Positions 13,402-39,458 are shown, counted from the stretch's first letter. The stretch: 64,000 nucleotides of DNA from a virus (IMGVR_UViG_3300034190_001539:37286-101285); one strand, 5' to 3'. A program made the numbers and translations. Notes: a model not told the origin generated them from the sequence alone.

Positions 13402-14004
13402 TTAGCCTCTCATTATATCGTTAATGACTGCTTCTACCTTACCATACTTTGTATTACGAACAGCAACGTTCTTATCAACACTCTCATTCATTGGATACAT
13501 AAAAGCACCATGTGTAGATGGATTAGATACGAAGTCAAATGCAATCAGTTCAAAGTCATCCTGCACTTCTTGAGCCCCACTCTCATTCACAGATTCAACC
13601 GAACCCATACCACGAGAACTAATACCCAATCTAATACCACTTTTAAATAATTCTTTTAGAATATTACCGCTCGGTGTTGGTAAAACCTCTACAGTTCCAA
13701 CTAAATCATCACCATTCCAATTCATTTCTGTAATATTATGTGATACGTTAGCTAAATTCACAACAGAAGATTCGGGATGGTCTAACTCACCCATAGCCCT
13801 TTTCTGTCCAATAAAATTTTCAAAATACTTTTTAGCTTCACGCATTAGTATTTCTTTTGGATACACCCTACCATTTTGGTTTTTAGTGTCTGCTCTTTGC
13901 AATACACCCTTAACAACTAACTTTCCGTTGTTCTCTTTCATAGCCTCGTTGATTTGGTCGGCTTGTATTTCAAATGGTAAATAATCTACTATTAATTGTT
14001 TCAT
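13402..14004 (-). CDS. gp21: Prohead core protease (T4 gp21 family)
   Basis: NQNGRVYPKEIL, GELDHP, VSHNIT, LGISSRGMGSV, FDFVSNPS. Confidence 0.95.
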   Translation of the reverse strand: MKQLIVDYLPFEIQADQINEAMKENNGKLVVKGVLQRADTKNQNGRVYPKEILMREAKKYFENFIGQKRAMGELDHPESSVVNLANVSHNITEMNWNGDDLVGTVEVLPTPSGNILKELFKSGIRLGISSRGMGSVESVNESGAQEVQDDFELIAFDFVSNPSTHGAFMYPMNESVDKNVAVRNTKYGKVEAVINDIMRG

Positions 14005-16255: not shown

Positions 16256-16289
16256 ATTATACTCCAATCGTTTATATAATTCTTCATAT

Positions 16290-16305: not shown

Positions 16306-18111
16306 TTAATTTTTCTTAGTATTAAGGGAAGATACTTCATCTTTATATTCAGTTTCTAAGTCACTAGCCTCTGAAAGCAAAGTTTTTGCATCTTTACCCA
16401 AATGTTTGAATAGATTTTCATAGTGTTTTGTAGCAACTCCACCATAAGCCTTCTTCTTATCATGAGCCCCTAACGGATCTCTACCCCTCGCACCACTATC
16501 CTTACTATATTTATTAGCTTCTTTAGGTCTCCCAGCGCCTGGTTGTCCACCTTCTTCTGAACCACCATTATTATCCAACTCATGACCTGTTCTACCAGCC
16601 GCCATATCCGATGGAGTACCAGCAGATTCTCCGCTCTTAGCAGGATCGTTTCCTTCCATTTCAATTTGTGAGCGTCTAAATTTATTCTTATAGTCAAATA
16701 CTATTTGTTCATCATTTTCTTTAATCTGTTCTTCTGTAAAATTAAAGATGTTTTTGTAAATCCATTCGGAAGATACTAAACCATCTTGTAGCATAGAAGA
16801 TGCTAAAGATGTTTTGTTATTCCATAGCTCTACTTTTTCCTGTTCATATATTGTAGATGGATTTGTTAAACCTAAATCAAAGTTTACAAGCTCTTGGTCT
16901 CTAAATCCTTGAGCATATAGATGAACTACTGCAATCTTTGTTAATTCACTAACAATGATTCTTTGTATTCTTTCAATTGTTCTAGCAAAGCGAACATCTT
17001 CAGCAGCCAATGTAGCTTTAGAACCTAATCCTTCTTCATATCCTAAGAAAGCCTTTGGAACTCTTAAAGATGCTAACATTTTGTTTTTTAAATATTCAAT
17101 ATCCTCTGTTGCTTCATAGGTTAAACCTGGAAGTGCATCAATACTTGTTCCACTATCTCCACCTCTTACAGGTAAAAAGAAATCTTCTGTAAGGTTTTGG
17201 ATATTATAACGAAGATTATAGTCACCTGTTTTCTCATCAATAACAGGAGCTTTTTTCATTTTATTAACTACTTGTTGCATATAATTATCAACTTCTGCTG
17301 GTGGAATGTTTCCAATATCCAACTTAAATACTCTCTTTTCAGGAGCTCTCATAATCCTATGAATCAACATAGCATCTTCCATAAGAGTTAATTGTTTCCA
17401 CACCTTTCTACCACCCTCTAATTGTGACCTACCATAAGGTACATAGTTAGAATCTGATAGAAGTCTAAAGTGAGCTACCTCATAGTTCTCAAATGTTTTT
17501 GTATCCTGCTTTTTAGAACTATGTCTACTACTATCTCCTTGTGGTGTTAGCATAAACTGAACTAAAGATGGATTATCAGGATCGTGTCCTTCCATTCTAG
17601 CAACATCGTAAGCAGACATAGGTGTTACATTCGTAATACCATACTTTTCAGCTACCTCTAATTGTAAAAAGAAATCACCATACTTATTCATATTACGAAT
17701 CCAAGGCCATAGATTAAATTCTATGTTTATAATATCATAAAATAGATTGTGTAGTATATCATATATTTGATCATTATCTGTTTTAATATCCAATACTTTA
17801 CCATACTCATTTTTCATTGTTGATTCATCTGAGTAAATATCTAAAGCTGAAGCAATAATAGGATCAGAATCCATTGACTCATAATCTCTAAATAATCCTA
17901 ATCGTAATTGTTGTGCATACAATTGGTCGTTATATCCAATCTGTTGCATATTAGAATACAACTTAGTATATCTATCTACTAAATTTGTTTGAACATTTGA
18001 TTGTAATTGTCCTGTATCAACTATTTTTAATTTTCTTCCACCTATATTTCTAACGATAGTGTTTGTTGAAAACAATCGTTTTAGTCTTGAAAATAAATCT
18101 TGTTCTGCCAT
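16306..18111 (-). CDS. gp20: Portal protein (T4 gp20 family)
   Basis: LMEDAMLIHRIMRAPEKRVFKLDIGNIP, EDFFLPVRGG, SLRVPKAFL, EDVRFARTIERIQ. Confidence 0.96.
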   Translation of the reverse strand: MAEQDLFSRLKRLFSTNTIVRNIGGRKLKIVDTGQLQSNVQTNLVDRYTKLYSNMQQIGYNDQLYAQQLRLGLFRDYESMDSDPIIASALDIYSDESTMKNEYGKVLDIKTDNDQIYDILHNLFYDIINIEFNLWPWIRNMNKYGDFFLQLEVAEKYGITNVTPMSAYDVARMEGHDPDNPSLVQFMLTPQGDSSRHSSKKQDTKTFENYEVAHFRLLSDSNYVPYGRSQLEGGRKVWKQLTLMEDAMLIHRIMRAPEKRVFKLDIGNIPPAEVDNYMQQVVNKMKKAPVIDEKTGDYNLRYNIQNLTEDFFLPVRGGDSGTSIDALPGLTYEATEDIEYLKNKMLASLRVPKAFLGYEEGLGSKATLAAEDVRFARTIERIQRIIVSELTKIAVVHLYAQGFRDQELVNFDLGLTNPSTIYEQEKVELWNNKTSLASSMLQDGLVSSEWIYKNIFNFTEEQIKENDEQIVFDYKNKFRRSQIEMEGNDPAKSGESAGTPSDMAAGRTGHELDNNGGSEEGGQPGAGRPKEANKYSKDSGARGRDPLGAHDKKKAYGGVATKHYENLFKHLGKDAKTLLSEASDLETEYKDEVSSLNTKKN

Positions 18112-18121
18112 AATTTGCCTC

Positions 18122-19699
18122 TTAGTTAATTAACCAATCTAACGATTCTTTTTCTCCATTGGGTCCTACTTCCATTTCCCAAGAATTATTTTGATTGGTT
18201 GGTGTTTGTGGCAACATCTGTGATGCTACTCCACTTAAAGTTCTCTTAGTTAATTCTATTCCCTCATTTTTGAGTCTTAATGCAGTATCTCTTACCCAAA
18301 GTGTAAGAGCAAAACTCATCACTAAATCATCGTTGTATCCTGTCATCGCTTCAGCTTTATTATTGTTATATATAAATACAAACAATTCATCAATTAATCT
18401 ATTTGAGCGAGCAATAACTGACTTTTCTCTGAAGTATTCTTCTAATTTAGCAATAACTAATGGTCGTGTTTTGGATGTCATACTAAATCCAGCTACCATA
18501 TTTCTATCTGCAATTCTATACTTATTAGTCATTTGATGTTCTGTATCTACATACTTTAAATCTTTACTTGTGTAAAATAAATTTTCATAACCCCTATCAA
18601 TACATTGTTGTAGTGTAGCCCAACCTATATTGTTGTTCTCTACTACCAACAAAGCATTATTATATTCTGTTGCTGTATTTACACATAAGTTTCCAAAATC
18701 TTTTGTTGATATTTTACCTTTATATTCTGCTACTTGTTCCATAGTTTCTATATCCATAACGTGAAATGCAGAATAATCAGAACCATCTCCTCTGCTGACA
18801 TCAGCACTTAGTACATAATCTTTAGTATAGTTTGCTGGTTGCCATACCCAAAGGTTACTATCTATCCCTCTCTTCTCTAATGGGTCTGTAACGTGTGTTT
18901 GTTTATACTCTTCTAAGATTACACCATCTATGACAGTCTGTCCTGAAGTTAAGAAGTCACAATCACATTCTTGAGCAGCTAAAGAAGGACCCAATAGTCT
19001 ATCTTGCTCTTTTCTCCATTCATCATTTCTTTCAGGATGTAAGTTCCAATGTAGTTTGATAAAGTTCCAATCGTTACTACCATCTTCTGCACCAACCCAA
19101 GTCTTATGAAACCAATTACCTATACCATTTGGTGTAGATAGTGCAATACATTGTCCACCAGTAGATAGTGTCTGTGAAGCAGCAGCCCATATCGGTTCAA
19201 TCTTATCAATGAAAGCAGCCTCATCTAATATCAAAAGAGACAAAGCCTCAGAACGACCACTATCCTCGCCGCTAGAAACAGCTTTTATCTGTGAACCATT
19301 ATTATATCGTAATGATAGTTTATTATCTTCTGTACATTTCTGTTTTAACCAACTTGGCAAATTAGCGTGCATTACCCTAACCTTTGTAACTAAGTTTTTA
19401 GCAGTATCTTGTTTGGTTGCAATCACTAATATATTTTTGTCTTGATGAAATGTCATCATCCAAAGGGAGTATCCGGCTGACAACGTAGACAAACCTAACT
19501 GACGAGCTTTTAGAATTACATTGAACCTATGTTCTTCAAATGTTTTAAGAGATTCTTCTTGAAACGGCCAAAGATGAAATGGAACTTTACCTTTAATTGG
19601 GTGCTGAACAACACAATACTTTTTTAAAAAGTATATAGGATCTTTAGCGCATTTCTTATATTCGCTTTTTATTACCTCTTTTAGTTGTCCTGGTTTCAT
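18122..19699 (-). CDS. gp17: Terminase large subunit (T4 gp17 family)
   Basis: Walker A LKARQLGLST, Walker B LLILDEAAF, STPNG, nuclease ADVSRGDGSDYS and NDDLVM; ATG at 19699 overlaps upstream TAA (TAATG). Confidence 0.96.
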   Translation of the reverse strand: MKPGQLKEVIKSEYKKCAKDPIYFLKKYCVVQHPIKGKVPFHLWPFQEESLKTFEEHRFNVILKARQLGLSTLSAGYSLWMMTFHQDKNILVIATKQDTAKNLVTKVRVMHANLPSWLKQKCTEDNKLSLRYNNGSQIKAVSSGEDSGRSEALSLLILDEAAFIDKIEPIWAAASQTLSTGGQCIALSTPNGIGNWFHKTWVGAEDGSNDWNFIKLHWNLHPERNDEWRKEQDRLLGPSLAAQECDCDFLTSGQTVIDGVILEEYKQTHVTDPLEKRGIDSNLWVWQPANYTKDYVLSADVSRGDGSDYSAFHVMDIETMEQVAEYKGKISTKDFGNLCVNTATEYNNALLVVENNNIGWATLQQCIDRGYENLFYTSKDLKYVDTEHQMTNKYRIADRNMVAGFSMTSKTRPLVIAKLEEYFREKSVIARSNRLIDELFVFIYNNNKAEAMTGYNDDLVMSFALTLWVRDTALRLKNEGIELTKRTLSGVASQMLPQTPTNQNNSWEMEVGPNGEKESLDWLIN

Positions 19700-20085
19700 T
19701 ATATTTTTCCTAAGATAAATCCTATTCCTAACCAAAGATATTGATTCTCATACCATTTTGGTTTAATTACTTCTACTAATTCTTCATTAGTTTTATCACG
19801 AATTTTTAATAAATCAATTTGTTTTCTCTGAGCAAGCATTAATAAAGAATCTAATTTTATTTGTTCTTCTAATTGATTAATTACATCGTCACAATCAACA
19901 ATCGATTCTTTGTAGCCTTCTATCAATGAATCTGCTTTAGCTAATTTGCCTTCCCATTGTGCATCACGAGCTTTCAACATTTCTAATGCTTGTTCTTTTG
20001 TAAAAGAAGTTATTTCTTTTCCATCTTTTTGAATTGATTGTCCAAGTAAAGGAACTATTAATAATAGTGATAAAAAATATTTCAT
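19699..20085 (-). CDS. Secreted/membrane coiled-coil protein (signal peptide + C-terminal hydrophobic anchor)
   Basis: MKYFLSLLLIVPLLG|Q signal-like N-terminus; coiled coil; C-terminal KWYENQYLWLGIGFILGKI. Confidence 0.6.
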   Translation of the reverse strand: MKYFLSLLLIVPLLGQSIQKDGKEITSFTKEQALEMLKARDAQWEGKLAKADSLIEGYKESIVDCDDVINQLEEQIKLDSLLMLAQRKQIDLLKIRDKTNEELVEVIKPKWYENQYLWLGIGFILGKI

Positions 20086-21229: not shown

Positions 21230-24200
21230 TTACCTCGTAAACTTTAACATACCTAGTATTTGATTAACAGGTGCAAATGCTCCTGTATATTTGAAAACCT
21301 TTCCTTTAAACACAAAAGTAATACCCTCACTCGGTATAATCTTTTTAAAGCCACCCAAAGCATTTAATCTATCTAATTGAGTTTTTAACATTTCTAATTT
21401 AGAAGGATCTTTAGCTTTTTTTACCTGAGCTATTACTTTTATCAAATCTTTTTTTATTTTTTGTACAGCCTTATCAGGATTAGCTGCTATAAAATCTTTC
21501 ATATTACTTAGTACCTCAGCACCTAATTCAAAGAAAAGAACTTCCCAATCTCTTATGTGCTTTTTCTGTAGCTTGGCATGATCGTTTTTATCAGTAGACA
21601 ATACCCAATCTAAAAACTTAGGATAATCCTTTAAGTCTTTTTTAATCTGTGGAATCTTATATGATTTATCAAAGAAAGCCCACCTCTTCAAAAGACCAGC
21701 CATAACATTATTTGTTACATTAGGATTGTCTGTTTGTTTTCCACCATTAAATATATACTCATACCAATATGCCTGATGATAATCTGATAATGTGTCTGTA
21801 TCTTTTAAATCAAATTCTTTTTTTAATTTGTTTAACTTACCTAAAAAGTAACTTTGTCTGGCAGAAAAGTCTTTTACCTTTGGTAGATTAGCAACAAATG
21901 GTTGTGTAATCTTAAATGCTTTTTGTACATTTTGATTAACTTGCTTTATCATACCAGCCAAAACTCTTGCACTTCCTCTATCTTCCCCTTGCGGAGAACC
22001 TGCGGAATCATATTCTATTGTTCCGTGAAACTGTAATAATGCTTTATCATATGGTATAACATTTACTGTCTTTGGATATATGACTTCTAAAGACATAAAC
22101 TTTTTACCTTCATCAAATATTTTATCCTTTTGCGCTTTACTTAATTTACTAACCGCTATCTGTAAATCTCTTATAGCATAAACAAAGGCTTTTTCAATAT
22201 CACCTCTACCCGCAAACATATTTTTAATACCATTAATATCTAATGCGTTAGCACCAAAATTTTTAATATGTCCTTTGTTACGAGCTGCGATAAGTTTATT
22301 ATTTTTCCAACTTACCATTATATTCTGTCCATCTGTTTTTTCAGTAACAGCGCCTTCACTACTAAGATTACCTTGTAATGTATTAATAATTAGTGTTTTA
22401 AAATCTGAAAATGTAAGATTTTTATCGTCAAATGGATGACTTAAATGACCATAAGCTCCGCCCATAAGCAGTAACTCCTTTTCTTTGTTTCTTTGTCTTA
22501 GTTTATTTTTACTATTTATTTGTTCTTTTAAATCTATTTCATCACCCTCATATGAATCACCATCAGCACCAGCTGCAAATAGAGTACCAATAATATTATC
22601 AATTGCTGCTGTACTTCCCATCCAATTTACTACTTCCCAACCTAATGGTTTTACTACCTGTTCCATCCAATTTTTGTACTTAGTAACTGCCATAGTAGAA
22701 CCATTTGCTTGTCCATGATCTAAATAAGTTAGTGGTACAGATCTATATTGATCTGTTATTGAATTTTTTGCATCGGAACTCAAAACATAATCTAAAACTT
22801 TCCAACCGGCATCTTTGTAAATTGAATCCAACCATTCTTTAGAAGTCTTTTTGTATGTTTCATAATCTGTATAAAATGTGGAAGGACCATCATCTAAGTT
22901 TCCAGCAGGTGTGGATGATGATTCTAATAAAAATTCTTCAATTAATTCATCCGTCAATATGTATGATTCAAATAACTTTTTGAAATTATTCGTCATCATA
23001 GTATACACAGCTTTATCATAATATCCAAATGATTTTTTAAATAGTTTTTCTCTGGCGCCATCATCAATTTTAGGATCACCTAATAACTTTCTCATCTGTG
23101 TTCCACTTATATTACCTGATTTTGGTGCTTGAACAAAATATCCGTGTTCTTCAAAACCCTTTATATCATTCTTATTTTTTTTATAATCTTGATAGTATGA
23201 TTTACTACCATCTTTCTTTTTACCACCTTTTAAACGACCAGCATCTTTTTCACCAAAAGCAAAAACAACTGCTGTATTATTACTATTAAATTTTTTCAAT
23301 AAATTATTTGGAACATATGGCGACTTTTCTTTAATGATACGATTTTTTGGAATACCCATTTTAATCATATGTGAAGCTTTTTCTTTAAAGTTCATCGGAT
23401 GCCGTGGTGGTTGTTTTATATCAGAAGTTGTTATATAAACATCATCAAAGTTTGATTTCATCCACTTATATGTAGCTAAATGTCCACTATGAAATGGTTG
23501 AAATCTTCCACCAAATACACCGATTAGTTTTTTATCTTTGTTTTCGTTCAAATTAGATGCACTATCCCCATTATCAACTATAGAATATACAACATTTTCC
23601 ATATACAAGTCAAGACTTTCTTTTATATTTTTTGCTTTTTTATAACCACTACCATATGGAACTGAAGTATTACCTTTCTTCTTCATTTTCTTAACCATCT
23701 TACGGCTTGGTGATGGTAATGTTCCTGCTGGTGCTCCAAATTCTTCATTCTTCTTTTTGGTTTTCTTTTTCATCTTATTTATGTAAGCTCTATAGACAGC
23801 TGCTTCCGAACTCTTGCCCATCTCTTTAGCTCTCTGTTCCATAGCTACAGCAGCTTGTATCTTATGTGCGTGTTTTTTACCACTTCCACTTATCTTACTA
23901 ACTGATGCTTTAGCATCTTTGACTGTAGCAAACTTTAATCCTTTAATTGTTCCTTTTGGATTCTCATCCGTATATAAATCTGAATGAGACTTTGAACCAC
24001 GATGTTGTCCTTTCTTACGAGGAACTCTTGGTTCTTCAGATACATTTTTTAAATAATCTTTATCTTTGGCCATTCTAAATTTTACAACTGGCTTTCCATT
24101 TATTGTTGGCATTCCGTGTTTGTCTTTTCCGATATTTTTAACAAATACCTTTTTGTTTTTAAATCTACCCACTTTAATTGTATCACCAACATTTACATCT

Positions 24201-25018
24201 ATCTTTATAGCCTCAAAGAAACGAGATTGGCCTGGATCTTTAAATACTTTTTGAAATTTCTTTTCTTTTCTTAACCAAGCTTTTGCTATTTTACTTTTTG
24301 GTTTTAATTTCATAAATTTATTTATACCCTTATCAACTAACATCTTAAATTTACTTTGTGCTTGTTTAGGGCTAAGAAATTTATTATTACCAACTACCAT
24401 AAAATTACTCATACCAAACAAACCTTGAAAAAATGCTAAATTGTTTTGAACATCTTGCCAACTTTGACGAACAATCTTTTCAGGAACAACCCTTGCCCTT
24501 TCTTCATTTCTCTGTAAAGCAACTTCTAAAGAGGTATTGACAAAAACCATAAAACAATCGTAACCCAATGCTTCTAATTTCTGTTTCTTTTCTTTTACAG
24601 AACCATATTTGTGTCCAGTTCCATCTATGATTACACCCAATCTACCATTGGTATATAATCTCAATCTTTCTTTACTTAAAGATTTAGCAAATTTTCTTAA
24701 ACCGCTTGTATCATAATCTACAGGATCGCCATTTCTATCTACACCTGTCAAATCAGCAAACAATTCATCTGGCATAATGTCTAAGTCTGTAGTACCATAA
24801 TATTTTTTTAATAACATTTCCAATTCAGAATCTTGATTTACCATCTTCAAACCTGTTTTAGAAACATTTATCTTTTCAGGTATACCGAATAATTGAGAAG
24901 CTACATATGATTTACCACTTCCAGGCCCTCCAGCTAAAAAGATAGCTTTAAATATGCCAGGATCCCTAGCTCCTTCGTTTAGAAATGGTTTTGTTAAAAA
25001 TTCTGTAAGTTTATCCAT
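21230..25018 (-). CDS. Multi-domain protein: P-loop kinase + small basic modules + HxGH cytidylyltransferase-like + C-terminal KxDG ligase/nucleotidyltransferase-like domain
   Basis: AGGPGSGKS / VIIDGTG / VALQRNEER (AAA_33/zeta-like); GGRFQPFHSGH...ISGTQMR; GGAYGHLSHPFDD...TEKTDGQN...SEGITF. Confidence 0.8.
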   Translation of the reverse strand: MDKLTEFLTKPFLNEGARDPGIFKAIFLAGGPGSGKSYVASQLFGIPEKINVSKTGLKMVNQDSELEMLLKKYYGTTDLDIMPDELFADLTGVDRNGDPVDYDTSGLRKFAKSLSKERLRLYTNGRLGVIIDGTGHKYGSVKEKKQKLEALGYDCFMVFVNTSLEVALQRNEERARVVPEKIVRQSWQDVQNNLAFFQGLFGMSNFMVVGNNKFLSPKQAQSKFKMLVDKGINKFMKLKPKSKIAKAWLRKEKKFQKVFKDPGQSRFFEAIKIDVNVGDTIKVGRFKNKKVFVKNIGKDKHGMPTINGKPVVKFRMAKDKDYLKNVSEEPRVPRKKGQHRGSKSHSDLYTDENPKGTIKGLKFATVKDAKASVSKISGSGKKHAHKIQAAVAMEQRAKEMGKSSEAAVYRAYINKMKKKTKKKNEEFGAPAGTLPSPSRKMVKKMKKKGNTSVPYGSGYKKAKNIKESLDLYMENVVYSIVDNGDSASNLNENKDKKLIGVFGGRFQPFHSGHLATYKWMKSNFDDVYITTSDIKQPPRHPMNFKEKASHMIKMGIPKNRIIKEKSPYVPNNLLKKFNSNNTAVVFAFGEKDAGRLKGGKKKDGSKSYYQDYKKNKNDIKGFEEHGYFVQAPKSGNISGTQMRKLLGDPKIDDGAREKLFKKSFGYYDKAVYTMMTNNFKKLFESYILTDELIEEFLLESSSTPAGNLDDGPSTFYTDYETYKKTSKEWLDSIYKDAGWKVLDYVLSSDAKNSITDQYRSVPLTYLDHGQANGSTMAVTKYKNWMEQVVKPLGWEVVNWMGSTAAIDNIIGTLFAAGADGDSYEGDEIDLKEQINSKNKLRQRNKEKELLLMGGAYGHLSHPFDDKNLTFSDFKTLIINTLQGNLSSEGAVTEKTDGQNIMVSWKNNKLIAARNKGHIKNFGANALDINGIKNMFAGRGDIEKAFVYAIRDLQIAVSKLSKAQKDKIFDEGKKFMSLEVIYPKTVNVIPYDKALLQFHGTIEYDSAGSPQGEDRGSARVLAGMIKQVNQNVQKAFKITQPFVANLPKVKDFSARQSYFLGKLNKLKKEFDLKDTDTLSDYHQAYWYEYIFNGGKQTDNPNVTNNVMAGLLKRWAFFDKSYKIPQIKKDLKDYPKFLDWVLSTDKNDHAKLQKKHIRDWEVLFFELGAEVLSNMKDFIAANPDKAVQKIKKDLIKVIAQVKKAKDPSKLEMLKTQLDRLNALGGFKKIIPSEGITFVFKGKVFKYTGAFAPVNQILGMLKFTR

Positions 25019-25042
25019 AATTTCCTATGTTCTTATTCATAT

Positions 25043-25050
25043 ATAAATAT
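25043..25050 (-). promoter_or_regulatory. Putative late promoter ATATTTAT
   Basis: Octamer 24 nt upstream of the 1262-aa gene. Confidence 0.6.
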
Positions 25051-25062
25051 AAAGTTTGTGAA

Positions 25063-26883: not shown

Positions 26884-29800
26884 TTATGTTGTGATATTAC
26901 CTGGTACTGGTGCTTTTGAAGGATCGAATTGAGTAGAGCCACCAGCCGGTGGTGCTATAGTACCACCAGCATTGAATGAAAATTTACCTACCGAAGTTAC
27001 TGTAGTGTGTACTTCATTTCCATATCCTCTAATTGATACGCCTGGTTCTATTTTTATTCCACGCTTTGCATTATTAGAATTTGAATCAATACTACCTGAT
27101 GCTATAGAAAATGTTGCAATATTACCACCAGTTGCTGTAACAGCACCTGACATTGATACATTACCACTAGCATCCACATTAAAATTATCTGTTACGACAA
27201 CTATTTTTCCACTTACGGATTGAATATATCCTGCGTTAGTACCACCATTTTTGATTAAAACATCCCCATCAGCATCTACAAAGAATCCTTTTTCTGTACT
27301 TGCCGTATCTGTAACACTATCTACTGTTCCTAATTTAAGTGATGTCTGTGTAAGCTTAAAGTTTGTTGAACCTAATGAAAAAACTTCAGATTTAATATTA
27401 AGTACTGGATTTGCGTCTGAAGCAAAGATTATTGCATTATCACCGGAATCATCACTTATTTCAAATTTAGGAATGTCATCGTCTATACCAAGAACAAAAC
27501 CAATTTGGTCATTATCAAATGCATTAAAAGGATCATCAAAATGTGCACCACCAGCTATGAAACTATCAGTACCACCCGCTATCTTTACCTTATTACCTAA
27601 AGACATTGAAGCTTGTGTTGCAGATATTCCAATACCAGAAGCTACGCTTGTTGATTCTATTGAGCCAGACTTTATCGTAAATCCACCTATTGTACCTTCT
27701 ACAGCATTTACTTTTCTAACTATCACATCTCCATCAGTTTTTATGTGAAATTTAGATGAACTTACTTCAAAACCAGTACCAGTATCAAATTTTAAAAAGG
27801 CAGTAGAACTACCTACTCTAAATACACTTCTACTTCCATCGTCTCTTGTACCAAGTATTATAGGTATAGAAGTATTTGATTCTAACGCTACACCACCGCC
27901 TACATTATTACCTATGAGTATACCAAGAGCGTCATCACCATCTATTTGTAGATTACCAGAATTAGCATCTATTCTTATTCTTTCTGTAGATGATTGATTA
28001 AAATTTATATTAGAATCACCGATTGACCAACCACCTACTTTTAATACATTACTTTCATACTTAAAATTACTTCCAATAGACATTCTGTTGCCAGGTCCAT
28101 CAATAAAAGTTCTATTACTTTGACCAAAGTTATGTGTACCAGTTCCTAATGAAAGAACACCACTACCACTTAATATTGCATTTGGTACATTTGAAGTTTG
28201 TTTTGAAGATGATATAACCCCACCACCAATAGTCCAACCACCAGCAGTTAATGTATCGTCTACATAAGAAAATGTCGAACCTACATAAAATACAGGTTTA
28301 GTAGAAGCACTAACGAAGAACAATCCATCGGTTGGTGTACCAGTTGCTGTTGTAGCACCAGTTCCGAGTGCGATTGAAGCGTTATTACCATTTATATCCG
28401 CTACAGTTCCACTACTTAATCTACCAGGTATTAATTCCCAACCAGCTAATTTAGCTTTATTTGCTGTTATTAATACCGAAGCACTATCTTGACTTCCCGA
28501 TACTTGACCTGTTCCACTAAATACTGCAAATCCATATGGTGAATCTACTGTTCCGTCATTTAGTGGTAATTTTCCTAATACTAATTTTGGTTCTCCATAA
28601 TCTATACTACCAGTCCAAATTGTTAGGGATTGACTAAAAGCACTAAGAGCCACACTACCACCAGCATTGTCACTCTTTATTGTTCCTGGCATCAAATCCC
28701 AACCAGCAATCATATTTTGACCTTGACCAAGTTCTGCTATTAGATTTCCATCAGCAGTTCCACCACCATTAAATATTTTTAATCCATAAACACTACCACC
28801 ATCAACTTCACCTAAGTATATTCTATCATTACTTCCATCGTTAATTGTAATTCTTTTTGCAGCTGCACTTATTGTTATTATATCAGATGGACTTGTTATA
28901 GCTGCTGTTGATATTGTCCATCCAGCGATTGTATTTCCACCCTCACCTAATTCTACAAGTATATCACTATCGGCTGTACCAGTTCCATCAAATATTTTTA
29001 GTCCATAAACAGTACCATCATCAACCTCACCCAAATGAATCATCTCAGTACCATTGGTTTTAGAGATAGTAATTCTCTCAGTAGCAGCGTCTATATTTAT
29101 TGTATTGCCAGAACTACTTATAGCAGTTGCTCCTATTCCCCAACCACCGATATTACCTGTTTTAGCATTTATAGCACCCTCTAAGTAAACAGAACCTGAT
29201 GCCCATAATCCAAAATTACTATTATCTCCAGAATCTCCGTCTTTATCTAAACTACCAAATCTAGGAGAAGTTATTCCAGCTAAATTACCAAGCCTCACTA
29301 CAGCAGAACCACTATTTGAGTTTACATCTATAAAAGGGCTATTAGGTGAAGAAGCATCAATAGCTACTGTACCACCATTTATTCTGGCAGCCGTTGAACC
29401 AACATTTATATTATCTAAATCTCCTATTACATTGTCCACATTGTATGTATCAAAATCTCCACTTGTAGTTTTACTTCCAGCTATTTGAAATTGTACAGCA
29501 TTTATATTTCCAGCATCATTCGCATCTTTGAAAAGTAAAATATCATTGTCGCTGAATGTAGCAGATTTAGTATTATCAAATGTAACAGTACCACCACTTT
29601 GAGAAGAGCCTGATACGACACCACTATCTGATACGAATAAAATACCATTAGTTGCTTTGACAATATCTTTTTGGAATATATGTGTTCTTAAAGTATTTCT
29701 TACTACTATATTATCTACCTCTAACAATGTTCCATTGGAAGCATTATCTTGTATTCTAAATCCATCACCAGTTATACCTGATATAAAAGTTGAAGTTCCT

Positions 29801-32800
29801 AAAGTTTTTGTGTCAGCAAATGTAACATCACCAGTTACGGCTAATGTACTTCCATCAAAAGTAAGATTAGCTTCAGCGTTCATAGCGTCTGTACCAGTAG
29901 CAGTTACAACCCTATTGTTTGAACCATTTGCCATAAAGTCTGAGACATCTACTGAAATTGCATCTGCGGCAACATCAATTCCTGTTCCAGCACCTACTGC
30001 GAGAGTTCTATTAGCTGCTATAGTTCCACCGCCTGTTAAACCATCGCCTGATATAACCGATACTGCTGAGTGGTCAATGTGTTCATTAGCAACAAATCCA
30101 CTTAAATTATCGTGTACGATTTCACTATCTGTAGTTGTTATTTCATTAGCGTTAGCAGTTATACCTGTTCCGCCAACTACATTTATTGTTCTATTTGCAG
30201 CTATTGTTCCACCGCCGGTTAATCCGGCACCTGCTATAACACTTACTGAACTATGGTCTATATGTTCATTTGATACAAATCCACTTAAATTATCGTGAAC
30301 GATCTCACCATCTGTGGTTGTTATTTCATTAGCGCCGACAGTTATACCTGTTCCACCTATAACATTTAAAACTGAGTTGGTGGCAGTCATACCAGCTCCA
30401 GCTAATAAGGTTGCTACATCAGCAAATGCTTCTTTTTTAAGAGTACCAGTTGCCCCACCATCTAAAAATAATACATAATCCCCATTTGCTAAAGTTTCTT
30501 CACCAGCCTCAGACAAATCAACATCTATCTGATTTGCTTGGACATCTACAAAATTACCAGCTATAGCATTTACTGTAATCGAACCACCTAATGTTACAGT
30601 ACCCCCACCAGTCAAACCTGTTCCAGCAGTTACTGTCACAGCATCTTCTGCTAATCGACTAATTGGTATTTCATCATTATCAATTTCAGCAACTATTGCT
30701 GCGGCTAATTCATCTGATATACCACTAGCTTCAAGCCTACCAAACGAACCTGTTGAGGTTGATGAACCACTTATTGCATGTCCAGTTCCCACGAACTCAA
30801 TTCCTGTTCCTGTGCTATCATTTCTGATTTTTAATGCTGTTGTACCAGTAGCACTTGCATGGTCATTTACTATTTCAACCAGATTCCTTGTACCTGTGTC
30901 TGAACTATTTGAACCAAAATACGCTATTCTTCCAGTTGTTAAACTATCTGCTCCATCTACCATTAAAACAGAACCACCAGTATTAGCTGGAGTTGGAATA
31001 TAAATAGTTGAGTTTGAAGTTGCTTCTGAATCTATGTAAAGTGCAGCATTATTACCATCCTGATCTATTTCCAATCCATACTGACCTTGATCCTGTTCAA
31101 TTTTTATTCCAGATTCTGCTCCAGTTGCATTATGGACAACCAATGTTGCTTCAGCTGAAGCCAACGATGCCCCAATTCCTGCTCTTTTTGTAGCGTTTAC
31201 CATACCAAACGAACCGGTTGAAGCAGCTGAACCACTTATTATATTACCTGTTAAATTTAAAAGTTCTGTATTATTTACATCGAAGTGTATTTCGTTTGCT
31301 GTTTCAAAATCTATTTTAGTTTGAGCATCTTCACCAATAACTAAATCAGTTTTATAGATAGATTCAATAGTTGTTTGAGCTGCTGTGATAGCAATATCAT
31401 TTGCGTTTGCAGTAATTCCATCCCCACCAATTACATTTATTGTTCGATTAGCTGCTATTGTTCCACCACCAGTCAATCCAGTACCAGCTACAACTGATAC
31501 AGATGAATGGTCTATATGTTCATTAGCAACAAATCCACTTAGATTGTCATGAACTATTTCTGAATCGTTTGTTGTTATGTCATTTGCGTTTGCCGTAATA
31601 CCAGTTCCACCAACTACATTGATAGTTCTGTTAGCTGCGATTGTTCCACCGCCAGTTAATCCGGCACCTGCTATAACACTTACTGAACTATGGTCTATGT
31701 GCTCGTTTGCAACAAATCCACTTAAATTATCGTGAACAATCGCTGAATCATCAGTTGTAACCTCATTAGCTCCTACACTAATACCAGTTCCACCTATAAC
31801 ATTTAAAACCGAATTAGTAGCCGTCATACCAGCTCCAGCTAATAGTGTAGCTACATCAGCAAATGCTTCCTTTTTCAAAGTACCAGTAGCACCACCATCT
31901 AAGAAAAGAACATAATCACCATTTGCTAAGGTTTCTTCGCCAGCTTCTGATAAATCTACATCTATCTGATTTGCTTGAACATCTACAAAATTTCCAGCTA
32001 TAGCATTGACTGTGATTGAGCCACCTAATGTTACAGTACCCCCACCAGTCAAACCTGTTCCAGCAGTAACAGTAACTGCATCCTCTGCTAACTTAGCTAT
32101 TGGGATTTCGTCATCATCTATTTCAGCAACTATCGCTGCGGCTAATCCATCTGATATACCACTAGCTTCAATTCTACCAAATGAGCCTGTAGAAGCAGCT
32201 GAACCGCTTACTATATCGCCTGTTAAGTTTAATAATTCTTTATTGTTTACATCAAAATGTATTTCGTTTGCTGTTTCAAAATCTATCTTAGTTTGGGAAT
32301 CTTCTCCAATTACTAAGTCTGCTTTGTATATAGACTCTATTGTAGTCTGAGCTGCTGTAATAGCAATATCGTTGGCATTTGCAGTTATACCATCTCCACC
32401 AACGACATTAATAGTTCTTGTTGAGGCTATTGTTCCACCGCCTGTTAAACCATCACCAGCAGTTATAGAAACTCCACTGTGGTCTATGTGTTCGTTTGCT
32501 ACAAAACCACTTAAATTATCGTGTACGATTTCTGAATCATTAGTTGTTATATCATTTGAATTTGCAGTAATACCTGTACCACCAACTACATTTATTGTTC
32601 TATTTGCAGCTATTGTACCGCCACCTGTTAAACCAGCACCTGCTGTGATTGAAACAGATGAATGGTCTATGTGTTCGTTTGCTACGAATCCACTTAAATC
32701 ATCGTGAACTATTTCTGAATCGTTTGTTGCTATATCGTTTGCGTTTGCCGTAATACCAGTTCCACCAACTACATTAAAAGTTCTATCACTAGCTAATGTA

Positions 32801-35800
32801 CCACCGCCTGTTAAACCAGCTCCAGCAGTTAATGTCCTACCTTGTAATGTATCTACATTACCTTCTTCGGTTGTTACTCTAGTAGCTAATGATGATGAAA
32901 CAGCAGTGAACGAACCACTAATATTTGAGGCTAATGTCGAATCTGAAAAGTCTACTGCTAAATTTTCTGAACCTTCATCTTTAAGTCCAGTCCCTGCAAA
33001 GTCACTAACATCTACTCCTATATTTTCTGAACCAAGGTCTTGTAAACCATCTCCTACAAAATCACTTACATCTACATTTAATGTTACTGAACCACCTAAT
33101 GTTACAGAACCACCAGTTTTTAAACCATCACCAGCAGTTATTGTTACAGCATCCTCTGCTAGTTTTGCTATCGGAATTTCATCATCATCAATTTCTGCTA
33201 CAATCGCTGCGGCTAATCCATCCGATATACCGCTAGCTTCTATTCTTCCAAATGAACCAGTCGAAGCAGCTGAGCCACTTACTATGTCGCCAGTTAAATT
33301 TAATAATTCTTTATTGTTTACATCGAAGTGTATTTCGTTTGCTGTTTCAAAATCTATTTTAGTTTGAGCATCTTCACCTATAACCAAATCAGCTTTATAA
33401 ATGGATTCAATAGTTGTCTGAGCTGCTGTGATAGCAATATCATTTGCGTTTGCAGTAATTCCATCCCCACCCACAACGTTAATAGTTCTGTTAGCCGCTA
33501 TAGTACCGCCACCTGTTAAACCAGCACCTGCTGTGACTGATACACTACTATGGTCTATATGCTCATTTGCTACGAACCCACTTAAATCATCGTGTACTAT
33601 TTCAGAATCGTTTGTTGCTATGTCATTTGCGTTTGCAGTAATACCAGTTCCGCCAACCACATTAAAAGTTCTATCGGAAGCTAATGTTCCACCGCCAGTT
33701 AAACCTGCACCAGCAGTCAATGTTCTACCTTGTAATGTGTCTACATTACCTTCTTCGGTTGTGACTCTACTAGCTAATGAGGATGATAAAGCAGTAGAAG
33801 AACCAGTGACATTTGAGGCTAATGTGGAATCCGAAAAATCGACATTGAAAGTTCTACTAGCTGCTATAGTACCACCACCACTTAAACCAGTACCAGCAGT
33901 CAATGTTACTCCACTATGGTCTATGTGTTCGTTTGCTACGAAGCCACTTAAATTATCGTGTACAATCTCACTATCTGTGGTTGTAATCTCATTAGCATTA
34001 GCAGTTATTCCAGTCCCACCAACAACGTTTAGTGTGACTGCGCCAGTATCACCACCACCTGTTAAACCATCACCAGCAGTTACACTCGTAATGTCTCCCT
34101 CACTAACTTGAAGTCTAGATGAAATAGAAGCTGAAAAGTCTGTTAGGTTGGTTGATGCTCCACCAAATCCAGCAACATTAACTGCGCCAAATGAACCTGT
34201 AGAAGCAGCTGAACCACTTATTATATCACCAGTTAAGTTAAGAAGTTCTGTGTTGTTTACATCAAAGTGTATTTCGTTTGCTGTTTCAAAGTCTATCTGA
34301 GTTTGAGAATCTTCACCAATTACTAAGTCTGCTTTATAAATTGATTCAATAGTTGTTTGAGCTGCTGTAATGGCTATATCATTGGCATTAGCCGTAATTC
34401 CATCACCACCAACTACATTTATTGTTCTATTTGCAGCTATAGTTCCACCACCAGTCAATCCAGCACCAGCCGTAACTGATACAGATGAGTGATCGATATG
34501 CTCATTAGCAACGAACCCACTTAAATTATCGTGTACGATTTCAGAATCGTTTGTAGCAATATCATTTGCATTTGCTGTAATACCAGTTCCGCCAACTACG
34601 TTAAAAGTTCTATCAGAAGCTAATGTTCCACCGCCTGTTAAACCAGCACCAGCAGTTAAAGTTAATGATTGAAAAGAACCACTAATATCATCACCAGCAT
34701 CAGAACCAAATGATGAATTCCAAACACCATTGGATATTGTTGTACCATCTATTGCACTATTTATTGTACTTCCTGCTATGATATGTACGTGATTTCCTTT
34801 AGCAAACTCTCCAACATTTCCATCACTAGCAGTAGTTCCTATCGCTTCGGGATCGGCTGTGTAAGCCTGTAAGGCTGGAGCACCTAATGTTCCAGCAACT
34901 TGACTATCGTTTGTAAAACTTTCTCTGTTTATAGCAGTTCCAAAATTAGCTACTCCACTACCACCTCTAATCTCAATACCAGCTCCAGTCATTTTAATAA
35001 AACTATCTTCTGAGTTGTATATTAATAAACCTTGTGGTGTTAATTCTACTTTTCTCGTATTACTACGAACAGAAAAATTATCGAATGTTATTTCAGTTTC
35101 AGGATTCTCTGCGGTTGTACTTCCAACTACTGTTTTGGTAAATGTTTTCTTACCTAAACCTGTATTTACAGTTCCCTTATTACCTGCAAAAAGTGGTTTT
35201 TCTACAGTAAAACCAGTATCATCATTAATACTTCCTGTTAATACAAGCTTTATATAAACGGCAGCTTCTGGTAATTCAGCCGAAGCACCAAAACTATTGT
35301 ATTGTCCACTTCCTAAAAAGTATTCACCATAACCATTTGAAGCAGTATATTCATTTTCAGGTAAAAATGGAATCCAACCATTACCGCCTGAAGCACTATA
35401 TTCTGCTCTAAAATATTGTGGGCCTAATGCCCTATCTTTTCCAATTTTATTAAATGATGAACTAAATCTAGCAACCGAACTAAAACTTATAGTATCACCA
35501 GCTGCAAAAGATTCTGTCATAATGTTTTCTAATAGGTACTGATTACTTCCTGTATAATTAACTGCTCCGCTTGGTACAACAATGTCTAAAGTATTGTCTC
35601 CACTTACTGCTTGATCGTCACCTGAATAACCACTCCTATCGGTTAATGAAACAAAAACAGCATCGGTTGTAGAGAAAGACCAACTGGTAATATTAGAACC
35701 AGACCTTACATTTCTACCAGCTGCTATTGTTTGATCTTCAAAACTTTTATTTCCTATATATTGTTGTCCACCACCTATTGTTTGAAATGAACCTGATTTT

Positions 35801-38800
35801 ATAGATACTCTTTCAACACCAAGATTATCCTTTACATTTAGCCCATGCGTAACACTACTCAATTCAACTGTTTCTTCTTCGTTTATAAGTTTATCAGATT
35901 CTATATTAAATCCACCTATTTTTCCACCACTAAATAAAACTTGTGAGCCTGTAATTTCTCCAGTACTTTTTAATATTAATTTATCGTTTGATGAATTTAT
36001 TTGAGTTTGTGCTATTTCAAATCCACCAATAGTACCTGTTCCTGTAACATCAATATTTCCATCAAATAATGCTGATGAGCCTGTTATATCTCCATTTTCT
36101 TTAATATTAAATTTTGAAGTACTAATAAACATATGTTCATCTAATGGTAATCCACCTGTCTTTGGGCTACCACTTATGAATATATTAGCACTATGAAATG
36201 AATGACTATCGGTAGTAAACCCTCCGATTAAACCAGCGCTAGCAGTAATTGTACCAATAAATGTGGCACCACTTGCTATAAGAATACCATCTTTGTCAAC
36301 TGTAAAGTTTGGTCCGAATTTAACATAAGCATTATCAGGGTTTTCAACTGTTGGTGAAAAATCTATATAGTACTCATCTTTTAAAGATAAATTACTCTCA
36401 CCAGTGTCGGTGCCTGGACCTTGGTCTGATTTAAATATAGTAGAGTTGTTAGCATCCATTGTAATATTACTACCACTAATTCTACCATTATCTATTGTAA
36501 AGTTTCCAATATTACCACCCTCAGCAGTTATAATACCACTCATAGTAACATTACCTTCTGGTGTTAGATGAAAATTAGAAGAACTTATTTCTATATTACC
36601 CTCAGAACCACTAACAAATTGTCCAGCACCACCTAAGAAAAATTTAGATGAACTCATAATCAAATCAGTTCCATCAAATTGTATTCTACTACCAGTTGGT
36701 TGTCCTACACTAAAAATTTCGTTTTTACTATCTACGTGAAATTTAGATGAACTTATTTCTATATTACCGCTAGAACCACTTAAAAATTGTAAACCCTCTC
36801 TACCGACAAAGAAAGCATCTGCTTGTACATCAAATACGCTTGGGCTAGTTCTAAATTTTAAAGAACCACTTTCTCCAACTAATTCTAAACCAACACCTTT
36901 GTAATTATCCCCACTGTCTGGCAATACAGAACCACTATAAATCATAAATCCATAAGAGCCAGATTGTGCTGATGCTGATACAAATCCTTGGTAGCCTATA
37001 GAACGAATGAAACCAGATCCTTCAGCACCATCTTTACCAGTTTCAGGTAGTTTTGAATCAACACCACCAAAGTGAATACCACTTCCAGTAGTGTCTCCAC
37101 CTAAGAACATATCACCACTTTGAATATTATCATTACCACTTATTACTATGTTAGCACCAGTAAATACAGAGCCAGTTGTGAAAGCAATCTCATCTGCAAT
37201 ATTATTATTTATATCATAAAACTCAGTTAAAAACTCTAAAGTCTCAGGTCTTTTATGTTGTAATGGAGCAGGAAGTTCTTGTTTAAATTGAATAAACGAT
37301 GGTGAGAATCCTGTATCCGATGATGGTCTAATAGATACATCTGATATATTCCACTTTCCTGATATAACTCTAAACTGAACATTACCATCTCCAGTTAAAT
37401 CAGAGTTGAAATTATGAGTTACTGTTCTAAAATCTTTTTGACTATCTTCATCCGATTCTATTTCTAAAACTCCCAATCTTTTTCCATATTGAGGTGGCTC
37501 TGCTATTTGTTTATTCGTAACATCATCAGTAAATAAATTTATTGCTTTAGTCATTGAAGAACCTGATACATATAATAACATCAATGCTCTACTATCAGTT
37601 CCTTTTTCTGCTCTAGCCTTAAAAGATAAAGTATAATCTATACCAGTTGTTAAATCAAATTTGTATTTGTCTTTTAATTGAAATTTTATTTGGTCTGTGA
37701 ATGTCGATATACTTCCTGATAGCATAACAGAATCCAACATCGAATCATTATCAAAAGAAGCTGTAGTAGTTGCTGTCGGACCTGACAATCCATTTGTGCT
37801 ACCCGACACAACCCAATATGTATCTTTATCTGTTTCGGATACGAAGTAACCTGTTCGTTCTCCGATGCCTACTGAATCAGAGTTTACCAATAACTCAGGA
37901 GATTCTAACGGAACTTCTGCTAGTAATTTAAAATCATCAAAAGCTCCCTCAGCTCTTACATAAACTTTTGCTTTGAATACATCACCTGAAAAAGTTCTCA
38001 TATTACCTAACCTAATGTCGGCATAAGAAACTATATTCTTTAAACTATAAGAAGCGCTAGGTTCTACTTCGTAAAATATTTGAGCATTTGCCCGTACAGG
38101 TAATACTATGTATTCTCCCTCTCTGTTTTGTTTTGTAAAAGGTGTACTTACATATGCTGTTCTACTGTTTTCTAATTGTGCGATAGATCCTGTGTAATGT
38201 GTTGGATGATTTCTATCTTTCGTATCGGTTACTATCTGAAAAGAAACATCACTAGCACGACCTAATCCAACATCTTCTAAAGTTCTATCATTATAAATAG
38301 AAGAAGTAATATCAGAAAATAAAATATCACCACCTATTTGAGTAGTATCAAATTTGTGGTCTCCGCCGGTTATTGTAAAACTATATGGATATTCAATAGG
38401 AGAATTTCTACGTTTTATTCTTTTAGATCTTTTAGTTCTACTATCACCCCTAACACTTTGTTTTTTAGTAGATCGTTTATTTAATTCTTTATCTGCCTTA
38501 TCACCCTTTACATCACCTTTTGGAGGACCTTCTCTTTTTACATCTCTCTGTTCTTTTATTCCAGCACCCTTTGCTAAAAGTTCATCTTCTCCACTTGTAA
38601 ATGGTCTGAATTCAAATCCTGATGCTGGTCTACCCTCAATTTGAAATATTGAAGATGATGCTATAGGAGAACCACCTTCTCTTTCTAAAGTACCAAATCT
38701 TTGTTCTATAGCTCTTAGTTGTGGAGAAGCATAAAATTTTATAGGTTGTATGTTTATTTCTGCTGGATTTATAATAACTTCACGAGTAAGTCTTATATTG

Positions 38801-39284: not shown

Positions 39285-39458
39285 ATGAAAAAGAAATATT
39301 CATTTACTATAGAAGAGAGCCTAATGGAATGGTTTAGAGTGCATGTTAAAGAAGAAAGCACTACGATGAGCGCAGTCCTGAATCAATATGTATTAAGTTT
39401 AAAGAGAGGTGAAACTAAACCCAAAAGAATTATGTACTCTAATCAAATGAAACGTTAG
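39285..39458 (+). CDS. Ribbon-helix-helix (CopG/Arc-like) DNA-binding protein
   Basis: MKKKYSFTIEESLMEWFRVHVKEESTTMSAVLNQYV: beta strand + two helices with the xSxxl RHH pattern; SD GGAGA before ATG 39285. Confidence 0.65.
   Translation: MKKKYSFTIEESLMEWFRVHVKEESTTMSAVLNQYVLSLKRGETKPKRIMYSNQMKR

Follow-up and report, generated by a model that had tools for sequence, protein, structure and literature searches.

A leader-tagged, multi-domain protein with a predicted new RNA-ligase-like domain as candidate head-packaged RNA-repair cargo of marine T4-like phages

A viral DNA stretch of 64,000 nucleotides (IMGVR_UViG_3300034190_001539:37286-101285, hereafter the window) was analysed; its source record is a 101-kb IMG/VR fragment estimated to be 55% complete. 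All genes of the window are located on the minus strand. This work concerns one of them, an open reading frame (ORF) of 1262 amino acids at 21230-25018 (P0001), and the family of multi-domain proteins to which it belongs. A preliminary description of this DNA had read the product as a late-made polyprotein that is loaded into the phage head, cut there into separate enzymes and injected at infection as a counter-defence kit. The ORF is uninterrupted, as claimed, and the listed motifs were all found at their positions: the N-terminus MDKLTEFLTKPFLNE/G (here and below, a slash marks a boundary), the P-loop GGPGSGKS (residues 30-37), HSDLYTDENP (starting at residue 345), HSGH (residues 510-513, 23480-23491), DDGPSTFY (starting at residue 709) and TEKTDG (residues 892-897, 22328-22345). 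The hydrophobic-x-Glu tripeptides proposed as domain junctions are also present, with their Glu at residues 15, 269, 328, 467, 492, 684, 699 and 832. As a whole, the earlier interpretation is partly supported: its enzyme and family parts are solid, while its packaging and cleavage parts are predictions, well motivated by the comparative patterns described below.

Pfam, PDB profile searches and fold searches together show that the three proposed enzymatic domains, a kinase, an HxGH nucleotidyltransferase (NMNAT-like) and a ligase-like domain, are real. The last of these forms the C-terminus (domain G, residues 853-1262, 21233-22462, minus strand). The C-terminal 427 residues (836-1262) gave no Pfam or PHROG match and only spurious matches in a PDB profile search. 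An AlphaFold2 model of domain G, built from 22 sequences, reached a mean predicted local distance difference test score (pLDDT) of 90, and its best Foldseek matches were RNA ligases, with Trl1 on top (probability 0.96). An unbiased search over 48,161 chains, which does not rely on Foldseek, ranked ATP-dependent RNA ligases in all nine best places (Z 7.0-8.5, 186-211 residues aligned, root-mean-square deviation 4.0-4.9). These Z values, all middling, include 8.5 for NgrRnl (186 residues), 8.2 for Trl1 (211 residues), 8.0 for REL1, 7.7 for T4 Rnl1, 7.5 for T4 Rnl2 and 7.0 for Rnl3; DNA ligases and capping enzymes scored lower (Z 5-6.8). The aligned part comprises domain residues 14-210 and 395-420, and the gap holds a large insert, helical and some 180 residues long, which separates motif III from motif IV.

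Nucleotidyltransferase motifs I, III, IV and V are recognisable in domain G. Among 22 aligned relatives, the motif I Lys (K894) is kept in at least 90% and D896 and G897 are invariant; in 39 long relatives the K, D and G of this motif are all invariant. E978 (motif III, LEVIY), E1231-G1232 (motif IV, SEGITF) and K1243 (motif V, FKYTG) are also invariant, motifs III, IV and V having been assigned by order and conservation rather than by residue-level structural superposition. Since domain G has no sequence membership in the described Rnl1-Rnl5 families, it is best treated as a separate clade. From its modelled fold and its motifs, we read it as a new clade of RNA-ligase-like covalent nucleotidyltransferases with a predicted activity. 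Two relatives carry an intein exactly between the motif I Lys and Thr (P0038, about residues 735-870; P0136, at the N-terminus), which starts at ...QEK/CIDGDS... and ends at ...ILIHN/TDGQN. Insertion directly after the motif I Lys suits a catalytic site.

At the other end of the protein, the P-loop kinase module (residues 16-262, 24233-24973, minus strand) is polynucleotide-kinase-like according to Pfam, PHROG and PDB profiles. Pfam AAA_33 and Zeta_toxin match residues 26-202 above their cut-offs, and PHROG 12810, 2071 and 505 were also matched, the last one, annotated as polynucleotide kinase, with an E value of 7e-6. A profile built from 14 relatives found the kinase domain of Clostridium thermocellum Pnkp as its best PDB match, at an E value of only 7.5e-4, followed by the seryl-tRNA(Sec) kinase PSTK. 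There is thus modest support, from profile similarity, for an RNA-end or tRNA-type kinase.

The HxGH nucleotidyltransferase (CT; 22967-23542, minus strand) was recognised by Pfam CTP_transf_like over residues 501-643, above the cut-off. Its GRFQPFHxGH motif (GRFQPFHSGH in this protein), which includes H510 and H513, is invariant, and so are S638, G639, T640 and R643 of the SGTxxR motif in 17 relatives. The best PDB matches of its profile were archaeal NMNATs (E 5.6e-6; 4yp5, 1ej2, 1f9a), with the NadM-Nudix protein 2qjo also found, and these NMNAT matches align mainly over positions 5-59, the N-terminal half. The module is therefore called NMNAT-like here; NMN would be its substrate by this resemblance, and other substrates of the HIGH family are possible.

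Four smaller segments separate or precede these enzymes. Module B (24059-24211, minus strand; VGDT...GRFKNKK) is small and basic and may be a beta-barrel; it has no Pfam match, so the label KOW-like that it had been given finds no support there. Module C (HSD; 23744-24034, minus strand) contains HSDLYTDENP. It is about 100 residues long and very strongly conserved, with 73-77% identity between this phage and part of a cyanophage protein. In Prochlorococcus phage P-TIM68 (L003, 2782-3903) it lies within a 373-residue protein whose gene is located between the major capsid gene and gp3, and in the ESM Atlas it was found in unnamed viral clusters only. Segment D (23543-23743, minus strand) is a Lys-rich linker carrying the I-K-E (residue 467) and L-N-E (residue 492) sites, and module F (22523-22921, minus strand) contains DDGPSTFY. 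An AlphaFold2 model of residues 1-860, from a nine-row alignment, reached a mean pLDDT of 43, too poor for modules B, C and F to be taken to the fold search.

Domain G was searched against 1.84 billion representative proteins (clusters at 50% identity). Of these, 1795 reached E <= 0.001, 588 of them with E <= 1e-30, and 572 IMG/VR stretches were confirmed. Architectures were compared in the best 150 relatives, which are 203-1930 residues long. Domain G is almost always the last domain, and stand-alone forms of about 410-440 residues also exist. The NMNAT-like module occurs in 100 of these relatives, B in 50, F in 31, the kinase in seven and HSD in five, and module orders vary (for example C-B-A-D-E-F-G, E-A-B-G and E-B-F-G). 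Close relatives differ by whole cassettes gained or lost between hydrophobic-x-Glu sites; the mix-and-match of domains expected by the preliminary description is thus what the relatives display. In several of them (P0058, P0061, P0139), CT and ligase are fused directly, with almost no linker. Cultured phages carry parts of the set: Pelagibacter phage HTVC008M and Methylophilales phage Melnitz each have a lone kinase module, and a CT-ligase pair occurs in Microcystis phage Mel-JY01, on which our literature search found no paper. The Mel-JY01 protein has 639 residues, its N-terminus is leader-like, and its ligase domain is preceded by I-A-E/GG. The two genes upstream of the Mel-JY01 homologue were considered as extra modules and rejected, being neither kinase nor any of the other modules.

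Pfam searches of the 39 long relatives revealed further cargo: the head domain of CCA-adding enzymes (E 1e-64) together with the RNA-binding domain that belongs to it, HD and 2H phosphoesterase domains, KTI12/AAA_33 kinases and DUF5661. In a single relative of 1930 residues, the order is an NMNAT-like module, DUF5661, a kinase, HD, a CCA-adding enzyme and the ligase. Judging from these domains, the cargo would mostly serve tRNA or RNA healing and sealing, and the CCA-adding, HD and 2H domains strengthen the RNA-repair reading that had been put forward from the kinase and ligase alone. No phosphatase or other 3'-end healing module is recognisable in the 1262-residue protein itself.

Three peculiarities of relatives were noted on the way. 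In P0049 and P0064 the NMNAT-like module runs into the ligase at an AARNKG segment, without the GGxxGH and motif I region; such proteins would be catalytically dead, or mis-assembled. A 1203-residue relative (L083, 1450-5061) has a Pol-beta-type nucleotidyltransferase signature (GS...DVDLH) between F and the ligase, possibly an RlaP-like partner of RNA ligases. Finally, a lysozyme-like ORF with a HEGGYVNDPKDPGG motif (L040, 2056-2532) is located between a separate kinase gene and a CT-F-ligase gene.

The same enzymes could in principle act on DNA: kinase and ligase might heal nicks of the concatemer beside the terminase, as an accessory of packaging with no RNA or counter-defence role. The position of the gene directly upstream of the terminase gene would suit this, the ligase fold is common to DNA ligases (Z 5-7), and NgrRnl-type ligases seal duplex nicks (PMC4408790). 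However, RNA ligases rank above DNA ligases in both fold searches, no domain of the OB or DNA-binding kind that usually accompanies DNA ligases was found, and the CCA-adding enzyme, RNA-binding domain, HD, 2H and KTI12-type kinases of the relatives act on tRNA. We consider a role in DNA repair very improbable.

The modules described above are preceded by a 15-residue leader, MDKLTEFLTKPFLNE (24974-25018, minus strand), which is kept in homologues regardless of the module that comes next. Its pattern, M-[ND]-[KE]-L-[TS]-x-[FWY]-L-[VT]-x-[PS]-[FI]-L-x-E, stands ahead of five different first modules, namely the kinase, B, HSD, the NMNAT-like module and F. A loose regular expression for this leader matched 66 of 121 multi-domain relatives, compared with 12 of 497 control ORFs taken from the same loci. 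With a strict expression, the matches were 21 of the 121 and none of the 497. Within the 101-kb contig, the specific pattern is unique to this gene. A generic rule, hydrophobic-x-Glu in the first 22 residues, was also tried as a cargo finder and discarded because it flags nearly half of the ORFs of the phage. Two relatives (L022 and L027) have the leader (...PFLEE) followed by a second I-L-N-E/G before the kinase, indicating that leader and module boundary are separate elements.

Similar peptides are found when modules are encoded separately. Stand-alone kinase and ligase genes keep an N-terminal peptide of 8-35 residues with the same motif at its end, for example MIKLIDLLNE/G in L040 and MIPFILKE/G in HTVC008M, and several stand-alone ligases start with MRFKEF.., MGFKQY.. 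or MKTFLDF... In the T4 genome (NC_000866), IPII and IPIII start with MKTYQEFIAE/A and IPI with MKTFKEF. The family leader and the T4 internal protein leaders have an x-x-x-x-E-F-[IL] core in common.

Each module type also has its own boundary motif. The kinase is preceded by x-x-E/G-[VA]-x-D-P-G in seven of seven cases and HSD by x-x-E/A-P-R in five of five. Module B follows x-x-E/[DEA]-I, with Glu eight residues ahead of VGDT in 97% and a hydrophobic residue at P3 in 82%; B itself occurs at shuffled positions. For the NMNAT-like module (x-x-E/[QN]-K) the spacing is variable, and Glu reaches 43% at the commonest offset. Module F has L-x-E/[AS] ahead of it in the instances listed. The ligase boundary reads [LI]-x-E/G-G, with Leu or Ile at P3 in 95% and Glu in 75%, Cys in 12% and Met in 10%. 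Hydrophobic-x-Glu therefore precedes every module type in the shuffled relatives; a lack of conserved Glu linkers in homologues, which had been named beforehand as a result that would refute the idea, is not what they show. In our view, one boundary motif on six unrelated folds is hard to explain by folding needs. The motif also has an uneven distribution: inside 135 ligase domains, [LI]-x-E is rarer than expected (observed/expected 0.45), with control motifs at 1.06 (LxD), 1.12 (LxQ) and 1.86 (ExL), whereas it is 1.52-fold commoner ahead of the ligase domain. Corresponding values in other proteins are 1.22 for the terminase (TerL) and 1.18 for p175.

These joints also bear on how the protein would be delivered, if it is packaged. 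It could be injected as one intact polyvalent protein from which only the leader is removed, like the N4 virion RNA polymerase. The leader and the gene context would fit this equally well, uncut delivery of polyvalent proteins is documented (PMC5512222), the ligase joint has Met or Cys where Glu would be expected in about 22% of relatives, and several relatives have the direct CT-ligase fusions with almost no linker. Such delivery would leave unexplained why Glu at P1 is kept before every module type despite shuffling, why [LI]-x-E is depleted within the ligase fold and enriched ahead of it, and why natural gene splits leave a short leader of their own on each piece. Injection of an uncut protein thus appears unlikely to us, and processing into separate enzymes is preferred.

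A candidate processing enzyme is encoded nearby. The preliminary description had placed the gene upstream of terminase and portal genes, and the neighbourhood is indeed a head-gene block. Downstream of the ORF, the order is four small genes, the large terminase TerL (18122-19735, minus strand), a T4-type portal (16306-18111, minus strand), small acidic or helical proteins, a prohead protease of the T4 gp21 family (Peptidase_S77, E 2e-29; 13402-14004, minus strand), a scaffold-like protein and a Gp23-type major capsid protein (8282-9904, minus strand). This S77 protease is the proposed processing enzyme. The cleavage preference of gp21 is established for T4. The capsid protein has L-I-K-E/A-S at residue 63, the expected maturation site, and small proteins near the protease begin with helices ending in L-D-E/A, M-N-E/A or I-N-E/A; these Glu sites are as expected if the protease of this phage keeps the T4 preference.

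The association with head genes is not restricted to this phage. In the best 80 of the 572 confirmed IMG/VR loci, the terminase gene lies 0.5-3 kb downstream of the ligase gene in 79, and portal, p288 and S77 protease come next wherever the contig is long enough. The same neighbourhood was found in Mel-JY01 and in a 484-kb metagenomic phage. A repair enzyme expressed with head genes would make most sense if it were loaded into heads for the next infection. Together with the leader, this arrangement suggests that the protein is at least targeted to the capsid, which we consider probable.

The region upstream of the ORF contains an AT-rich motif, TTTATATTTATATATGAA on the coding strand (25036-25053, minus strand), which corresponds to the T4 late box in reverse complement. 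The gene had been credited with a late-promoter motif of its own, but a canonical T4 late promoter on the coding strand is not supported: the exact TATAAATA at 25042-25049 is on the plus strand, the wrong one for this ORF, and the coding strand reads TATTTATA inside TTTATATTTATATATGAA. Several further late genes in the window have a comparable AT-rich motif ahead of them. By its sequence, the element appears to be common to late genes, yet it is not a canonical T4 late box. A directional motif, approximately (T)ATATTTAT(A/T)(T/A)A, was seen on the coding strand ahead of many late genes, including those starting at 16267, 8175, 61125, 59007, 11961, 39195 and 4936 (minus strand). In the window, 15 exact copies of TATAAATA lie on the plus strand and six on the minus strand, even though the minus strand carries all genes. 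This motif may represent the late promoter of this lineage, unlike the T4 box.

Several other genes of the window can be described briefly. Upstream of the ORF is a tail-fibre gene with an S74 chaperone domain, followed by one of two giant ORFs, which encodes a 4103-residue protein without any Pfam match (26884-39195, minus strand); the second giant ORF encodes 2266 residues (47883-54683, minus strand). An ORF of 1051 residues (39439-42594, minus strand) joins a calcineurin-like phosphoesterase (Mre11/gp47-like) to an SbcC/Rad50-like ATPase (gp46-like), and so two T4 recombination nuclease subunits appear to be fused in it.

Taken together, these observations suggest the following model for a "beads on a string" RNA-repair cargo protein of an uncultured marine T4-like phage. 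The protein would be synthesised late, alongside the head proteins, and its 15-residue leader would take it into the prohead core, like the capsid-targeting sequence of T4 internal proteins. The gp21-type (S77) protease would then cut off the leader and cleave at least some of the hydrophobic-x-Glu joints, and the enzymes would be ejected with the DNA at the next infection. Before phage gene expression, tRNAs cut by host anticodon nucleases could be healed and sealed, with the kinase phosphorylating 5'-OH ends and the ligase sealing them. For this complete sequence of events, deduced from sequence patterns, we see the arguments as evenly balanced. Its extension to a large group of marine T4-like phages, in which the head protease would be a polyprotein processor that frees injected RNA-repair enzymes inside the capsid, is plausible, though we hold it with slightly less conviction. 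In that reading, the set would comprise the kinase, the new RNA-ligase clade and, in relatives, the CCA-adding, HD and 2H enzymes, and tRNA repair would precede phage gene expression.

The function of the NMNAT-like module in this model could be of three kinds, among which we do not choose. It may counter defences that deplete nicotinamide adenine dinucleotide (NAD+) by rebuilding this cofactor. It may supply NAD+ to the 2'-phosphotransferase (KptA/Tpt1) that Trl1-type repair depends on (PMC9503650), or it may be coupled to the ligase more directly. NadV and KptA were not found in the 101-kb fragment, a result that is uninformative at 55% completeness. That this near-constant partner is chemically coupled to the ligase, through NAD+ for 2'-phosphate removal or as a donor of adenosine monophosphate, is quite unlikely in our estimation.

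Several points weigh against packaging and cleavage. T4 Rnl1 and Pnkp are cytoplasmic and not packaged. Counted over this one protein, [LI]-x-E is not significantly commoner than in shuffled sequences (11 sites, compared with 7.7 +/- 2.6, p ~0.14), so a list of motifs is unconvincing by itself, and the signal lies in their placement and in their conservation in relatives. As the relatives share ancestry, the conservation per module counts as about six independent observations and not as hundreds. Directly before the ligase of this protein, the conserved site of the family lacks its Glu and reads LLLM/GG; with Met or Cys in so many relatives, cutting at this joint is not universal, and a cut between F and ligase in this protein would need L-K-E/Q at residue 832. 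The model of residues 1-860, with its pLDDT of 43, is too poor to show that the joints are exposed. Motif depletion was rejected as a mark of protease exposure, because the protease-exposed portal shows no clear depletion (observed/expected 0.89), and the argument from depletion is therefore weak.

Much of this would be expected of an ordinary cytoplasmic multi-domain RNA-repair enzyme, never packaged, which would act as one polypeptide late in the infection that produces it, much as T4 Pnkp would if fused to Rnl1. The leader would then be an N-terminal helix with another role, and hydrophobic-x-Glu a linker habit inherited with each cassette. The domain content fits known cytoplasmic repair systems, and the chance-level site count and the Met in place of Glu before the ligase are both as this explanation would have them. 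It accounts less well for a single leader that looks like the capsid-targeting leader of T4 and precedes first modules of five unrelated kinds, for one N-terminal boundary motif on six unrelated folds, and for a gene that keeps its place in the head-gene block in 79 of 80 loci. Moreover, anticodon nucleases act early, and an enzyme produced only in the late phase would presumably come too late to repair their damage. We therefore judge a purely cytoplasmic enzyme rather unlikely, and retain the packaged, processed protein as our working model.

To our knowledge, phage RNA repair is documented only as a cytoplasmic, expression-dependent response to anticodon nucleases, and most of the phage proteins known to be packaged are restriction inhibitors, ADP-ribosyltransferases or polymerases. 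If the model is correct, RNA-repair enzymes loaded in advance and released by a protease would link these two fields, and the presence of a repair gene among head genes would be explained. The leader and the hydrophobic-x-Glu joints would then provide a simple sequence rule for finding injected cargo in uncultured T4-like phages, and the leader could be used as a packaging tag for engineering such phages. The family would also add a large unannotated clade of RNA ligases, with at least 1795 clusters at 50% identity. A literature search, in which not all journals were covered, found no description of a packaged RNA ligase, of a ligase-anchored, leader-tagged repair polyprotein or of an NMNAT-ligase fusion. 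In surveys of RNA repair in jumbo phages and of viral NAD systems (PMC7824862, PMC9503650), the genes for RNA ligases, kinases, CCA-adding enzymes and NadM/NadR are regarded as expressed in the ordinary way.

Compared with known systems, the protein shares separate features with each of four. Phage NAD+ salvage combines NadV with NadM or NadR (PMC9503650). The CT module resembles NadM and archaeal-type NMNATs in its GRFQPFHxGH and SGTxxR motifs and in its profile match to NMNAT structures; unlike NadM and NadR, it lacks a Nudix or kinase partner of their type and is fused to an RNA ligase. T4 Pnkp and Rnl1, bacterial Pnkp/Hen1 and fungal Trl1 combine a polynucleotide 5'-kinase with a sealing enzyme; here, a putative kinase of this type accompanies a domain with the fold of ATP-dependent RNA ligases, and relatives carry 3'-end healing (HD, 2H) and CCA-adding modules. 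In contrast to these healing-and-sealing systems, the ligase matches none of the Pfam or PDB ligases by sequence and contains the long helical insert described above, it is usually accompanied by an NMNAT-like domain, and the context is late and head-linked.

Polyvalent proteins comprise 2-15 shuffled conflict-related domains, are encoded beside portal and terminase genes and are predicted to be packaged and injected; in the same survey by Iyer et al. (2017), 2H domains of the polyvalent type were never seen with RNA ligases (PMC5512222). The family described here has the same large, shuffled multi-domain architecture and portal/terminase neighbourhood. It differs in being anchored by a C-terminal RNA-ligase-fold domain and in having no peptidase of its own and no MuF or portal fusion; instead, the prohead protease would process it in trans by way of a leader and sites of the T4 type.

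Finally, T4 IPI, IPII, IPIII and Alt have a capsid-targeting sequence, are trimmed by gp21 and are ejected with the DNA (PMC3012670). The similarities with these internal proteins include a short leader that ends in hydrophobic-x-Glu followed by a small residue, with the pattern x-K-x-x-x-E-F-[IL], and is common to unrelated cargo, the presence of an S77 protease in the phage and the proposed counter-defence nature of the cargo. In contrast to them, packaging is deduced here from sequence alone, the gene stands beside terminase and portal, the cargo consists of predicted RNA-repair and NAD enzymes and not of restriction inhibitors or an ADP-ribosyltransferase, and many enzymes are carried in one polypeptide with a cut motif at each joint.

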